Positions 42,001 through 48,000 of a DNA stretch of 64,000 bases are shown here, one piece after another. The DNA comes from Escherichia coli O157:H7 (GTDB lineage Bacteria > Pseudomonadota > Gammaproteobacteria > Enterobacterales > Enterobacteriaceae), in NCBI RefSeq assembly GCF_013167455.1, contig NZ_CP038328.1. The stretch is one strand, 5' to 3'. Position 1 is the stretch's first letter; each line of letters begins with the position of its first letter. A program made the position numbers.

Positions 42001-45000
42001 TGACCAGAGCACGCGTGTTGTCGAACGTGTTCTGCGCCTGCAGAGTCAGAGGACCATCCTCAGCGATAAGACGGCTGTTGTTGTTATAGATGTTCTGCCC
42101 GGAAAGCTCGATGCCTTCCTTGCCGACCATTCCACCCGTTTGCTGAGGCATGCCGAAGTACAGACCATAAGCATTACCGAAGTTATTGCCATCGCGGTTT
42201 TCGATACTGCCGCGCGCATTTATCTTCAGTTTTTTGCTGGCCACGATCAGCGCTGTGTTGTTATTGACGCCAGACATCGACTCCATCGTGATGTTCTGCC
42301 CCATCATGAAGCCGCCGTGGTTATCCACGGAGTTGGCTAACAGGGAGATATCACCCTCTTCAGAGCTGATCACGCCAATATTATTGGTCAGGCTGCCGCC
42401 AACGGCGACTTCAATACCCTGCTTACCGCTGATCCCCCCGGTATCGTTACGCAGAGAGCTTCCCTTGATAATCACTTTGCTGTTGGACAGAATTTTGCCC
42501 GCATAGTCGTCGATCGTGCTGTAACTTGACAGGGAGACGTTGCCATTAGACGCAATCTGTCCGCCGTTGTTATTGATGTTGTTCGCACCAATTTCTACGC
42601 CGGTATCTGCAATAATGCCCAGAGAGTCAGAACTGCCGGTATCGGCGGTTTTGGTTGAACCATTATTTACGCTACCTGCCGCGCCAATAACGATATGCCC
42701 GGTGGACGAACGGATCAGACCTTTGTTGTTATCCACATTACCGTTACTGATAATGGCGATATCGCCGGTGGTCTGGATATCACCGTTGTTGTTATTCAGC
42801 GCAGCGGATTCAAGACCCACATAGCCACCGCGAATCTGACCATTGCTGTTGTTGAGCGTTCCGGTTTTCAGCGCCACGAGCCCCGCTTCAATCCCGACAG
42901 AACTCCCTTTACCAGAGTTAATCAGCGTGGCGTTATTGGTATCAACCGCCAGCATTCCTGCAGCCGCAAGCTTGCCGTTAGTATTGTCAATCGTACCGCT
43001 GTTAACGTAGATATCGCCCATCGTAGAGATGTTACCCGCACGGGTATTCACGATAGTATTCTTGTTGGTATTAAGCGAGATAGTGCCTACAGATGTCACC
43101 GTACCGGTGGTGTTATCCAGAGTACCATTTGTTGTCAGGTTGATCGTGCTTGCAGACTGAATCTGGGCGTTACTGTTTAACAGGTTACCTTTGGAATCGA
43201 TGCTGACACCATTAACACCCCCAGCAATAACGCCGAGGTTGCGAACCCCCACACCTTTCTCGGTGCTGACCAGACTGATTTTGTTCGCATACATTCCGCC
43301 CAGTTTGGCAACATCTACGCTGTAACCGTTACGGGACCCCGTGGCGGATACGCTACCGGTCACCTGGCCTGCGGCATTAACATAGTTATTGCCAGCAACA
43401 ACGTTCAGCTCATCGGCAGACACTTTGCCGTTAACTACCACGTTACGGGACAGAATTTCTGTCGGGCTGGCGTTATCCAGTTTACCGAGCGTAATGGTAC
43501 CGCCGTTCACGGAGTAACCGGCCAGCTTGTCATCCTGGATATCCGGCGTCCCGGTGGTTAAGGTAAGTTTACCTGTATTGATTGAACCGCCACCGTTTAC
43601 AGTAATACCATTCGGGTTGGCAATAATCAGATCCGCTTTATCCCCTGCAACTTCCATCATCCCATTAATGGTTGAAGGATTTTTGGAAGTAACCTCATTC
43701 AGGATCACCTTCGCCGACCCGGAGGTCAGATTACTGTTTCCCTGAATATTTCCGGCAAGTGAAGTACTGGATTCATTAGCGCTATTATTGAAAACGACAC
43801 CATTTTTATCAACGTTTAGGTTATCCCAGATATTATGAGATAAACCGCTACCGTTAGGTTTGTTGATGTCAACGACTGGCACACCATTGGCGTTATATAC
43901 CGTTCCATTTTTTATGACTAATCCCGCCGCTTGAGAAGCTACAGGAAAAGACAACATCATAAGTATAGCAATAGGGGTTAATGCTTTCCCCACCGTTGCT
44001 TCCTTACTTAAATTTATCATCGCCACTAACGTTTTCCTTATTGATGCTATTCATTTTGGACATGCAGATCACTTTTGATGACTCACGGAATATCAGCAAA
44101 AATGATTGCGGCAAATCCTATCACCTGGCGCAATAAAAAATCACGAAAAATAAGCTGAAATAAGGACTCAAAAAAACAACTAAGAGTTATTGTTTTTTCA
44201 TCGAACGGCGAAGAACCTAACTTACTAAAACACAATAATTTAAAAGTCCCCCATCCTTGCTCCTTGGGTGAAAAAAATCCAATTTAGAGGACGTCTGAAA
44301 TGATATGTAGTTTTCTGTACGACATCATTTCAGACATCCGAATAAAACAACAAAGTTGGTGAGTTACAATTAATTTAAATCTTATTATTTGATTAACAAA
44401 GCATCATCATTACTGCATCTTATTCTCTATATCTTTTACGTCGGGGTAGATTCTTTATGGTCATTACGGGCAGGCGACATTTCATTATATTACCATTTGC
44501 ATTCACGCATGTAACCCTTAAGAGTTATATAAAAAGGAAAGAGTTCTTGCTCATGGTATTACTGAGATCGGATTAACCATGAGGTTAGCTATATAGAGAG
44601 CTTTGGCTTTGCGACAATTGGCTTAAGCAGCCACATTATGCCTGGCTTATCGTTGAAAGGGAGAAAGAAGAGCAAAACGGTTTGGCAAGCTTTCATTCCC
44701 ATCTAATAGCAATCACCGCTATACATCATCCCTTAACGTATTCTGGTCTTCATAAAAATGTTATTCTAAATTAAAGATTGTAATGATTTTAATAATGTTG
44801 TTATTATTTTGCAACAAATCAATCTAACACAATGATTATTCGCGATTTTTATTAGTTAAGAGGAATTGTTTTTACAGATTGCGCTACAATTCCGCTCATT
44901 TCTCACCACAGGAAAAGCTGAAGTAATCTTAAATGACTGTATTAACCCTTTTCTCCGCTGCCAGCACTCTTAAATATCGTTGTTTTATTCTTATAAAAAC

Positions 45001-48000
45001 GGCTTTTTTGACATAAAAAGTAATAGGTTCAGCCATTATGCAGAATTTACAACCTGAGAAAATCGCAAAAAACACTCTTATTCAGAATAAAACTCTGTTT
45101 ATCATCTTTCGGCAAGCATTAAATTACTATATTACCGTTCAACATTAGTATGAATGAAAATTCAATTGTTATACATGTGATGAATGTCATATATTGTGCT
45201 CATCGATTGCAGGACATCGCTATTCTTTTAGAGATACAGATATCACGCTGTTACTCTCTAATATAAAGAACACGCAAAGATTAGTTGTGTTACTGCAGTT
45301 GTTATGTCGCATATGGAATGCCCATTGTTACATCTTTAGTAAAAAGCTTTATTCACTTTCAAAATTTTTACTCCATGAAGATGGGCTGTTTTGCTGCAAG
45401 CAATTGAGTTAGTGCAATGAACAAGAACTTACTAACAAGGGTAATTATCATTTCGGATGATCTATATTACCTTCAGGGATTAAGTGCAAAACTAGGTCAC
45501 CATTATCGTTTTTTTATTGAGTGTTTTTTTTGTTCTCAAAATGCATGCAATAATGACCTAAGTACACTTAGATTTGACAACCGCTTTACAAAAAACGTAC
45601 TTCTTGTCGCAGTGGATGACGTAAGTATACTTGCAAAACTGCCAGATTTGGCCAGGTTTTTAATGATTGTTTCACTAAGAAAGATGAAAAACAGAAATAT
45701 CTTCTTTTCACTTTCAGAGCAAACATTCATTAGCCGATATATAAAATTGAATAAACTCATTACTTTGATTAAAAGTACTGATAAAGACCAGCAAGTCAGG
45801 CAGGTGACTCTGACAAGGTATGAGTGGGATATCTATTACTTATATTTTAAGATAGATAACAAAAGAATATTGCACACCCTGCTAAAAAAGGATGTCAAGT
45901 ATATTAGTCACTATAAAATATCAGTTTTTAACAAGTTTGAAATTGCTTGTGATAGTGATGGCTTTTACATTTTCAAGGCACTTATACAGTTAAGGAGATT
46001 TACCGGTTTTAAAAACGTCAGATTGTATCAATTGCATTAATTAACTCGTTCTATATTAACTCTAAATTTCAAGGATATTAATATGTTTTCTACTTTCAAA
46101 AAAGCAGCTCTGCTGGCAGCTATTGCATTACCTTTTTCAACTATGGCTGCGCCTACAGTCACTTTTCAGGGTGAAGTAACCGATCAGACCTGTTCCGTAA
46201 ATATCAACGGTCAAACCAATTCAGTAGTATTGATGCCGACCGTAGCCATGGCTGACTTCGGTGCAACTTTAGCTGATGGTCAGAGCGCAGGCCAGACGCC
46301 GTTTACGGTTTCTGTGTCTAACTGCCAGGCTCCAACTGGTGCAGATCAGGCAATCAACACCACCTTCCTGGGCTACGACGTTGACGCTAGCACGGGTGTT
46401 ATGGGAAACCGTGATACCAGCAGCGATGCGGCGAAAGGCTTTGGCATTCAGTTAATGGATTCCAGCACTTCTGGTAACCCAGTAACTCTGGCTGGCGCGA
46501 CTAACGTACCGGGTCTGACCCTGAAAGTTGGCGATACCGAAGCCAGCTACGACTTCGGTGCGCGTTACTTCGTTATCGATAGCGCTGCTGCCACTGCCGG
46601 TAAAATTACCGCTGTCGCAGAATACACCCTGAGCTACCTCTAATTAATCTACTGGCTGGCAGTAAATGCCAGCCAGTATTTCTTCGCACAATTAATAGTG
46701 ATTTTTCATGGACATGGAAAAGATAAGAATGAACATTTTTGCATATTTACTGGTACTTGTATTTTCCATGAGCATGAGCAGCAGCGCGTTTGCCAGCGTG
46801 GTAATGACCGGAACCCGTATTATTTTCCCTGGTGACGCAAAGGAAAAAACCATCCAGTTGCGAAATACCAGCGATCAGCCCTATATCATTAATATCCATG
46901 TTGAGGATGAACGTGGTTCTGACAAGAATGTACCGTTTATGCCAACCCCGCAGACATTTCGCATGGAAGCTGCCGCAGGTCAGGCGTTACGCCTGCTCTA
47001 CACTGGTAATAATTTACCGCAGGATCGCGAGTCTGTTTTCTGGTTTAGTTTCAGTCAACTACCTTATCTGAATAAGAATGATAAAAGTCAGAACCAGCTC
47101 ATCCTGGCCCTGACTAATCGAGTCAAAATTTTCTATCGTCCCAGCTCGATTGTCGGTAAATCCAGTGACGCACCCAAAAACCTGACTTACCAGGTAAAAC
47201 AGAACCGCATTGAAGTGACGAATCCCACGGGCTATTACGTCACAATTCGCGCCGCTGAACTGCTTAATAATGGTAAAAAAGTCCCCCTCGCGAATTCGGT
47301 AATGATTGCTCCTCAAAGCACAACTGAATGGACACTACCCTCTGGCATCAGTGTCGCTCCCGGTGCGCAGATCCATTTAGTGACCGTCAACGACTATGGC
47401 GTAAATGTTACGTCTGAGCATGCCTTATAACCTCTTTCTCCTTTTTTGAGCGGTATCCTTTTTCACGCACGAGTACGTCGAGATGAATAAATCCGTTGTG
47501 TCAATTTCTGCGGCAATGTTGGTTTTACTTTGCCAACCGGTCATGGGGAGCGAAATCTCACCCGCAACACCGTCAGATGAAGACAACTACACCTTTGACC
47601 CGCAACTCTTCCGCGGCAGCAGATTTAGTCAGTCGTCATTAGCAAAACTGACAACACGTGAGTCTGTTGCACCGGGCAATTATAAAATGGATATCTACAC
47701 CAACAATAAGTTGTCAGGCAGTTGGAATGTCACGTTTAAAGAAGCCGCTGATGGTCGCGTTCTGCCCTGCCTGACGCCTGAAGTCGCGGACGCGATAGGC
47801 CTCAAAACAGGGGAAGATAAGGGGGAAAAAGATCCTGTCTGTACGTTTGCTAAGGAACTCGCTCCCGGCATCACCAGCCAGACACAGTTGTCACAATTGC
47901 GCCTGGACTTATCGGTGCCACAGAGTCAATTGATTAGTCGCCCTCGCGGCTATGTTCCCCCCAGCGAGCTGGATACCGGAGCATCGCTGGCGTTCATGAA

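Follow-up and report, generated by a model that had tools for sequence, protein, structure and literature searches.

Comparison of related loci shows that two hairpins, here called H1 and H2, exist in the intergenic gap upstream of tpsA in Escherichia coli O157:H7 and are under purifying selection. The reading that we favor, tentatively and with somewhat less than even confidence, makes H1 a stem-loop that acts in cis within a long leader of tpsA. The hairpins were studied in a window of 64,000 nucleotides (contig NZ_CP038328.1) that represents O-island 47 (OI-47) of E. coli O157:H7; a window position x converts to 1,394,102 - x in strain Sakai and to 1,480,387 - x in strain EDL933 (CP008957.1). 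Handles such as L002 denote the loci with which the window was compared. The gap and the two divergent genes that flank it are as follows.

44027-45416 (unstranded): divergent intergenic gap of 1,390 bp between tpsA (ECs_1282/Z1542) and ECs_1281; 33.9% G+C
40214-44026 (minus strand): tpsA, 1,270 aa, GTG start; leads a long codirectional run with tpsB, acpS, and fatty-acid/polyketide-type genes
45417-46040 (plus strand): ECs_1281, 207 aa, ATG start; heads a chaperone-usher fimbrial cluster and is annotated as hypothetical

The palindrome and hairpin H1

A preliminary description of this DNA had pointed to a perfect 12-bp palindrome upstream of tpsA, and the repeat is present exactly as described, with GTCTGAAATGAT (44293-44304) and ATCATTTCAGAC (44324-44335) on either side of a 19-nt spacer (44305-44323). 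Perfect inverted repeats with arms of 12 bp or more and 3 to 40 nt between them arose in only 5 of 1,000 dinucleotide shuffles of the gap, which makes a chance origin unlikely; the whole window contains four such repeats. In O157, the arms lengthen to 16 nt with one mismatch (44289-44304 with 44324-44339), and folded 71-mers around the palindrome gave z-scores of -5.4 and -7.1 relative to shuffled sequence. The resulting hairpin, H1, is made up of the parts listed here.

44289-44339 (unstranded): hairpin H1, about 51 nt, with arms of 16 to 17 bp and an inner stem of 4 to 5 bp; 263 to 313 nt upstream of the tpsA start codon
44289-44295 with 44333-44339 (unstranded): outer stem of H1, with the base GGAU/GUCC in O157
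44296-44304 (plus strand): left arm of H1, TGAAATGAT, invariant across the E. coli haplotypes as well as in L032-L035, the deep orthologue
44324-44332 (plus strand): right arm of H1, ATCATTTCA, invariant in the same sequences and exactly 19 nt from the left arm in both lineages
44305-44323 (unstranded): H1 spacer of 19 nt, with an inner stem of 44306-44309 paired to 44318-44321, an 8-nt loop at 44310-44317, and 44323 unpaired

The deep orthologue was obtained from a search with ECs_1281, which led to a 55 to 56% identical protein on gut-metagenome contigs (L032-L035, including a Hadza sample) carrying the whole island in the same gene order. TpsA of these contigs has 89% protein identity to that of O157, and the L032-type island has no counterpart among 5,426 complete E. 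coli genomes. Four-fold degenerate sites differ by 44 to 74% between O157 and the deep orthologue, a divergence that is essentially saturated. The orthologous gap is 1,293 bp long (L032:6708-8000) and aligns to the O157 gap in three blocks only, namely, 44028-44196 with 76% identity, 44294-44400 with 67%, and 45112-45217 with 70%. Within H1, O157 and L032 agree at every one of the 18 arm positions, and both separate the arms by exactly 19 nt; in the spacer itself, only 7 of the 19 bases match. The inner stem reads TGTA/TACG in O157 and GTGTG/CACAC in L032, including a change from A-T to G-C at 44309/44318; in both lineages it keeps the register i+j=19 (not 20), an 8-nt loop, and the same leftover base beside the right arm. 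The distance from the left arm to the tpsA start is 270 nt in O157 and 268 nt in L032, with about 90 nt in between that are unalignable.

Variation within E. coli bears on H1 as well. Between O157 and L002, the E. coli haplotype farthest from it, 9.4% of the gap differs, compared with 4 to 10% of four-fold sites in the flanking genes; by this measure, the gap changes at least as fast as neutral sequence. Three stretches (44177-44376, 44773-44970, and 45021-45170) vary at 19 to 26 columns per 100 among E. coli haplotypes, far more than the same 4 to 10% at flanking four-fold sites, which points either to recombination that brought in more distant alleles or to hot spots of mutation in these stretches. 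One hot spot encloses the palindrome, yet 44294-44320 and 44324-44334 are invariant in E. coli. The base of the H1 stem occurs in the following forms.

Haplotype A (O157, the window): C at 44292, giving a C/A mismatch on the plus strand and G.U on the minus strand
Haplotype B (L005 and L006; plus strand): perfect 16-bp arms, GGATGTCTG.../...CAGACATCC
Haplotype C (L004, L009, and L029): A/A mismatch at 44293/44335
Haplotype D (L002, L003, and L007): G-C replaced by A-T at 44290/44338 and 44293/44335; an additional C-G pair at 44288/44340; arms perfect over 17 bp
Haplotype E (O145:H28, which is L028, and L031): A at 44293 with C at 44335, giving an A/C mismatch on the plus strand and G.U on the minus strand

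These forms make up a stepwise series from G-C through G.U to A-U in which haplotypes A and E are one-sided intermediates. Over six distinct sequences, 87% of cells in the H1 alignment were paired and 4 pairs were altered on both sides, whereas slid controls, in which the partner was moved by 1 to 3 columns, were paired in 22 to 45%. Judged by its conservation, H1 is functional, because neither chance nor hitchhiking nor template-switch repair can preserve all 18 arm positions together with the exact spacing once divergence is saturated. The palindrome is the core of this conserved hairpin and is hence probably a control element.

Hairpin H2 and the proposed tpsA leader

A consensus fold of the tpsA-sense strand revealed H2, which lies 32 to 92 nt upstream of the tpsA start codon and 170 nt downstream of H1, in a conserved footprint next to the gene.

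44028-44196 (minus strand): tpsA-proximal conserved footprint containing H2, a T-rich stretch, TGATAGGAT, and AAGGAA; 76% identity to the deep orthologue, followed by about 90 nt that are unalignable
44058-44118 (minus strand): hairpin H2, with arms AUCAUUUUUG (44106 to 44097) and CAAAAGUGAU (44077 to 44068), a 19-nt spacer with a small inner stem, and the base GGAU/GUCC
44123 to 44115 (minus strand): element TGATAGGAT, extended -10-like, invariant in both deep lineages and of the same TGAnAnGAT form as the H1 arms; overlaps the H2 base

The four pairs at the base of H2 are also those closing H1 in O157, and H2 ends 18 nt ahead of the Shine-Dalgarno sequence AAGGAA (44039 to 44034). On the minus strand, 98.5% of H2 cells are paired (9 of them as G.U) versus 84.8% on the plus strand, as is characteristic of strand-specific pairing with G.U on the sense strand and A.C on the other. 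Seven pairs are altered one-sidedly, and six of the seven keep a standard pair in every sequence by way of G.U on the minus strand. Predicted energies are -19.9 kcal/mol on the sense strand versus -13.5 on the other in O157, and -23.2 versus -15.9 in L032. Because H2 pairs well on the tpsA-sense strand alone, these comparisons show it to be a structure of that strand and hence an RNA structure, which would form in the tpsA transcript; such strand specificity implies that reading of the tpsA-sense strand would begin no later than 44118. The element TGATAGGAT, for its part, may be a promoter element, a third binding site, or a mere part of the H2 stem.

H1 and H2 share a design, with A/U-rich arms of 9 to 10 bp, the heptamer AAAUGAU/AUCAUUU, a 19-nt spacer with a short stem, and, in E. 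coli, the base GGAU/GUCC; the existence of an RNA hairpin of the same design adds weight to the hairpin reading of H1. In both elements, pairing is kept by compensatory or wobble changes. A hairpin also explains what a DNA operator would not, namely, complementarity that runs both outward and inward from the invariant arms and pairing that is restored by different bases in different lineages. Furthermore, the inner axis of H1 lies half a base pair off the outer axis in both lineages, which a bulge explains and a two-fold-symmetric double-stranded DNA site does not. In the model that we favor, H1 and H2 would both be transcribed in a long leader of the tpsA-tpsB-polyketide operon and would act after initiation, either in protection or processing of the mRNA or as a docking site for a factor that decides whether transcription of this long, AT-rich operon continues. 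For H1 itself, we infer transcription, action as RNA, and a role of this kind.

Stem-loops in 5' leaders that stabilize long mRNAs of bacteria or act as gates for them are familiar from ompA and, in processive antitermination, from the boxB element of lambda nut sites and the LoaP-dependent leaders of polyketide operons. H1 and H2 resemble them in lying ahead of a long operon with pairing kept by compensatory and G.U changes, and H2 does so additionally in its position just before an unstructured, A-rich ribosome-binding region. They differ from them in the sequence-invariant 9-bp stem of H1 and in its 19-nt spacer with an inner stem. They differ also in that a motif scan found neither boxA/boxB nor an ops motif (the best match to the RfaH ops element GGCGGTAGnnTG agreed at 7 of 10 specified bases) and in belonging to no Rfam family.

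Several observations weigh against a leader stem-loop as the explanation of H1. The hairpin has no strand preference of its own (87.1 versus 86.4% paired), and nine invariant base pairs at near-saturated divergence are more typical of a protein-recognized sequence than of a structural RNA stem. The deep lineages available are two, and covariation counts are therefore small. Rfam 15 gave no match, the best hits being eukaryotic microRNA models with E values of at least 0.12, far under gathering scores. No convincing position-conserved sigma-70 promoter was seen upstream of H1, and a scan of the tpsA-sense strand for -10-like hexamers gave two positions common to both lineages, the H1 arm and TGATAGGAT (44115-44123). 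Published tables of small genes from ribosome profiling in Sakai, of RNase E cross-linking, ligation, and sequencing of hybrids, and of Cappable-seq in EDL933 have no start, small RNA, or translated small open reading frame (ORF) in the gap among the entries listed, which refer to laboratory growth.

A more specific proposal, which we consider a long shot, is that H1 and H2, with their mutually complementary arms, make up one cis-regulatory RNA module, not described before, that belongs to the tpsA-polyketide operon of OI-47. The 5' arm of H1 (AAAUGAU) is complementary to the 5' arm of H2 (AUCAUUU), as is the 3' arm of H1 (AUCAUUU) to that of H2 (AAGUGAU or AAAUGAU). Given this cross-complementarity, the leader could alternate between a state in which both hairpins fold locally and one in which distant arms pair across about 230 nt. 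If real, the module could alternatively offer an RNA-binding regulator the same recognition stem twice.

Other explanations for H1

The preliminary description had taken the palindrome for a candidate operator of a dimeric regulator. A control role is indeed reasonable, because the palindrome is under purifying selection; a simple operator fits poorly with the complementarity in spacer and flanks, the compensatory changes, the one-base register shift, and half-sites 28 bp apart. In its fullest form, the operator hypothesis would make the invariant 9-bp arms half-sites in double-stranded DNA for ECs_1281, GrvA, or another regulator, bound about 190 to 225 bp upstream of a tpsA promoter near 44115-44123 and acting as an anti-silencer or looping site. 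Taken together with these details, it is a possible but rather unlikely account. Several features speak for it. The arms are kept in sequence and not merely in pairing, and TGAAATGAT-N19-ATCATTTCA is identical in both deep lineages; two inverted half-sites at a fixed, exact spacing better explain why nine arm pairs never change. The 310 bp next to tpsA contain four AAATGAT-like heptamers as well as the related, invariant nonamer TGATAGGAT (44115-44123), and the distance from H1 to the tpsA-proximal block is conserved. The symmetric changes, in turn, could come from AT-biased drift or from coevolution with a regulator that is 55 to 56% identical between lineages.

The gene on the right-hand side of the gap could supply such a regulator. 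Sequence searches gave no regulator assignment for ECs_1281. An AlphaFold model based on 11 homologues reached a predicted local distance difference test score of 83.8 (versus 39 for a 3-sequence model), and Foldseek matched this model to full-length RcsB, EvgA, FixJ, and NarL, with TM-scores of 0.5 to 0.54 for RcsB-DNA complexes. Three relatives of ECs_1281 gave GerE matches that were below threshold, and homologues are located directly upstream of chaperone-usher fimbrial operons in four lineages. The label of regulator given earlier to this gene is thus likely to be apt, by predicted fold and by the position of its homologues, and ECs_1281 is likely an RcsB/EvgA-type regulator with a receiver-like domain and a LuxR-type helix-turn-helix. 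Its predicted fold favors an operator in that RcsB and EvgA bind inverted repeats as dimers.

RcsB, EvgA, and BvgA are NarL/FixJ (LuxR-type) regulators, and BvgA controls the TpsA gene fhaB via an inverted heptad repeat. H1 resembles the operators of this family in being an inverted repeat upstream of tpsA, with an RcsB/EvgA-like protein (by predicted fold) encoded adjacent to it and with half-sites conserved in sequence at fixed spacing. It differs from them in that its half-sites lie 19 bp apart instead of being adjacent, match no RcsB/NarL consensus, and belong to a palindrome that continues off-axis through the spacer. NarL/FixJ-type dimers normally occupy palindromes of 14 to 20 bp, for which half-site centers 28 bp apart would be atypical. 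In both lineages the spacer is self-complementary in a register shifted by one base, so that the element lacks a single axis of symmetry, and the pair-creating change from A to C at 44288 opposes AT bias. The arms were not among the best matches for any regulator in a scan with E. coli consensus sequences (Fur, CRP, FNR, H-NS, IHF, LexA, Lrp, ArcA, NarL, RcsAB, and ops). A third near-copy of the half-site, inside ECs_1281 (45447-45457), is not preserved in the orthologue and was rejected as a half-site; it merely encodes IISDD.

Alternatively, the arms might be promoter elements, since TGAAATGAT fits an extended -10 (TGn followed by AATGAT); face-to-face -10 elements could then give short convergent transcripts or an RNA polymerase trap. 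This possibility is doubtful. The H1 arm and TGATAGGAT, both of the form TGAnAnGAT, are the sole -10-like positions shared by the two lineages on the tpsA-sense strand, but AATGAT is without the first T and no -35 accompanies it. Promoter-like matches in gap DNA are no more common than in shuffles (7 versus 7.0), and complementarity of the inner and outer stems is left unexplained.

Equally doubtful is the proposal that H1 stops transcription or insulates, or marks the 3' end of a small RNA missing from the annotation, and blocks read-through between the divergent control regions. It draws on the sequence next to the hairpin.

44340-44400 (unstranded): block abutting H1 on the side away from tpsA, part of the 67%-identity BLAST block, seen in alignment and folds

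In L032, a 7-bp G+C hairpin (GAGAAAC/GTTTCTC, about 7023-7043, with a 6-nt insertion) lies about 11 nt from H1 and is followed on the tpsA-sense strand by a U-rich tail, UUUAUUUUAU; the O157 counterpart is only a weaker 4-bp CAAC/GTTG (about 44343-44353) with a U-run. U-rich runs are found 6 to 11 nt past H1 on the tpsA-sense strand. However, an intrinsic terminator has a G+C-rich stem with a short loop of 3 to 8 nt and a U-tract directly after it, whereas the H1 stem is A/U-rich and its loop region (a 19-nt spacer with 8 nt unpaired) exceeds a terminator loop. No U-tract adjoins H1, the nearest U-run being 11 nt (O157) or 6 nt (L032) past the stem and on the minus strand only. A scan of 43900-45500 found 0 intrinsic terminators, and no small RNA is reported in the gap among the published entries listed.

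The least probable explanation is that H1 has no function, being either a quasipalindrome whose perfection is upheld by template-switch mutation or what is left of a mobile element: although the multiple simultaneous arm changes of haplotype D, which add one pair to the palindrome, resemble template switching, a stepwise intermediate exists in haplotype E, H1 is single copy with no related family elsewhere among the scan matches listed, and the idea is largely refuted by deep conservation, as lineages whose neutral sites differ by 44 to 74% agree at all 18 arm positions and in the exact spacing. H1 occurs at one place per genome in 380 genomes, and an H1 covariance model found no further copy in the window or any related locus. 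A metagenome scan with 11-mer arms returned 8 E. coli-type loci and 9 unrelated chance palindromes, and a genome scan with 9-mer arms returned unrelated AT-rich genomes only, among the matches listed. Repeated palindromic and mobile elements (repetitive extragenic palindromes or bacterial interspersed mosaic elements, miniature inverted-repeat transposable elements, and insertion sequence ends) were ruled out for this single-copy element.

The intergenic gap and its setting in OI-47

The gap had been described as a long, AT-rich, ORF-poor divergent region, and it is so: its 1,390 bp have 33.9% G+C, against 45.5% for the whole window, and are without an annotated or conserved ORF. Annotation by the Prokaryotic Genome Annotation Pipeline (PGAP) places zero features there in O157:H7 TR01, Sakai, or EDL933. 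The longest ORF has 72 aa and a TTG start, and no gap ORF retains its frame across haplotypes, the short ORFs being disrupted by indels. A hidden gene or pseudogene was rejected, as six-frame translation gave no conserved frame and the indels vary by haplotype. A tblastn search of the gap with ECs_1281 gave no match, and a likeness of ORF 45150-45266 to the ECs_1281 N terminus was not borne out on comparison. A small ORF at 45150-45338 (plus strand; MNENSIVIHV...) encodes 62 aa in 5 of 7 haplotypes and 38 aa in O157 and L004 owing to an extra T; its differences are mainly nonsynonymous, it has no similarity to ECs_1281, and it is probably noncoding promoter or leader DNA.

Farther from tpsA, a second footprint is conserved toward the fimbrial cluster.

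45112-45217 (plus strand): conserved footprint upstream of ECs_1281, a block of 70% identity with the promoter-like sequence TTGTTA-18-TATATT at 45166-45195

This promoter-like sequence is about 220 nt upstream of ECs_1281 and keeps its position in the deep orthologue, with an invariant -10 and a -35 of TTGTTA or TTGTGA. A CRP-like site overlapping it, TGTGATGAATGTCATA (45176-45191, 9/10 match), was set aside because it is not conserved in the orthologue.

Silencing of the gap by H-NS, as its composition had led one to expect, is plausible from AT-richness together with island status, the region having 33.9% G+C and OI-47 being horizontally acquired and present in 380 of 5,426 genomes. Like the H-NS-silenced regions of LEE1 and ecpR/matA, it combines a G+C content of 34%, an island found in 7% of E. 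coli genomes, and a long divergent control region, and it is without an expression signal among the laboratory data entries listed. It differs in that its best match to the H-NS high-affinity motif TCGATAAATT is merely 7/10.

Used as a query, the gap was 100% identical to E. coli O157:H7 chromosomes and was found in one copy, always in one piece, in 380 of 5,426 complete E. coli genomes (7%); a distant search of plasmids returned the same locus alone. The identity proposed for tpsA agrees with its annotation by PGAP as a filamentous hemagglutinin N-terminal domain protein and with a Pfam TPS match. Truncated relatives that are 73 to 75% identical (L157:4705-5948 and L158:2457-3879) lie beside wza-wzb-wzc capsule-export genes with the same polyketide-type genes downstream, and in L157 a transposase gene follows the tpsA fragment. 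Neither L157 nor L158 has a fimbrial cluster or H1, and H1 is missing where related tpsA genes have another upstream neighbor. The relatives L157-L160 were rejected as further comparisons for H1, their upstream regions being nonhomologous or off the contig.

Other observations concern neighboring parts of the window. ECs_1281 is frameshifted in strain YZMc3-1 (L007). The fimbrial usher gene (47483-50005, compared with L001:12457-14974) is intact, with 840 aa, here and in Sakai and EDL933 and is annotated as frameshifted in O157:H7 TR01. At 46650-46678 (plus strand), 7 nt past the stop codon of the gene for the major fimbrial subunit, lies an inverted repeat that is perfect over 12 bp, rich in G+C, and closed by a 5-nt loop. 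TTTCTT follows it, and it resembles the attenuators or terminators usually present between subunit and chaperone genes. Perfect 12-bp inverted repeats are present also at 15707-15751 (TGCCTACAGGAA-N21-TTCCTGTAGGCA, inside ORF 15304-15867 on the minus strand) and at 5990-6017 (AGGATAAGAGGT-N4-ACCTCTTATCCT).

In sum, the most fitting class for H1 is that of conserved cis-regulatory stem-loops or palindromes, of which it is a new example specific to this locus and unsurprising in kind; beyond OI-47, it represents an ordinary case of conserved leader or operator elements and no new principle. Besides O157:H7, OI-47 occurs in the related O55:H7 strains and in further E. coli lineages, O145:H28 among them. 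The island encodes the virulence regulator GrvA, a fimbrial cluster, and an exoprotein of the two-partner secretion type that is linked, in an uncharacterized secreted-adhesin/polyketide operon, to polyketide/fatty-acid-type genes. For this island, H1, H2, and the two promoter-proximal blocks provide concrete, mutable targets for learning when the presumably silent tpsA operon turns on.

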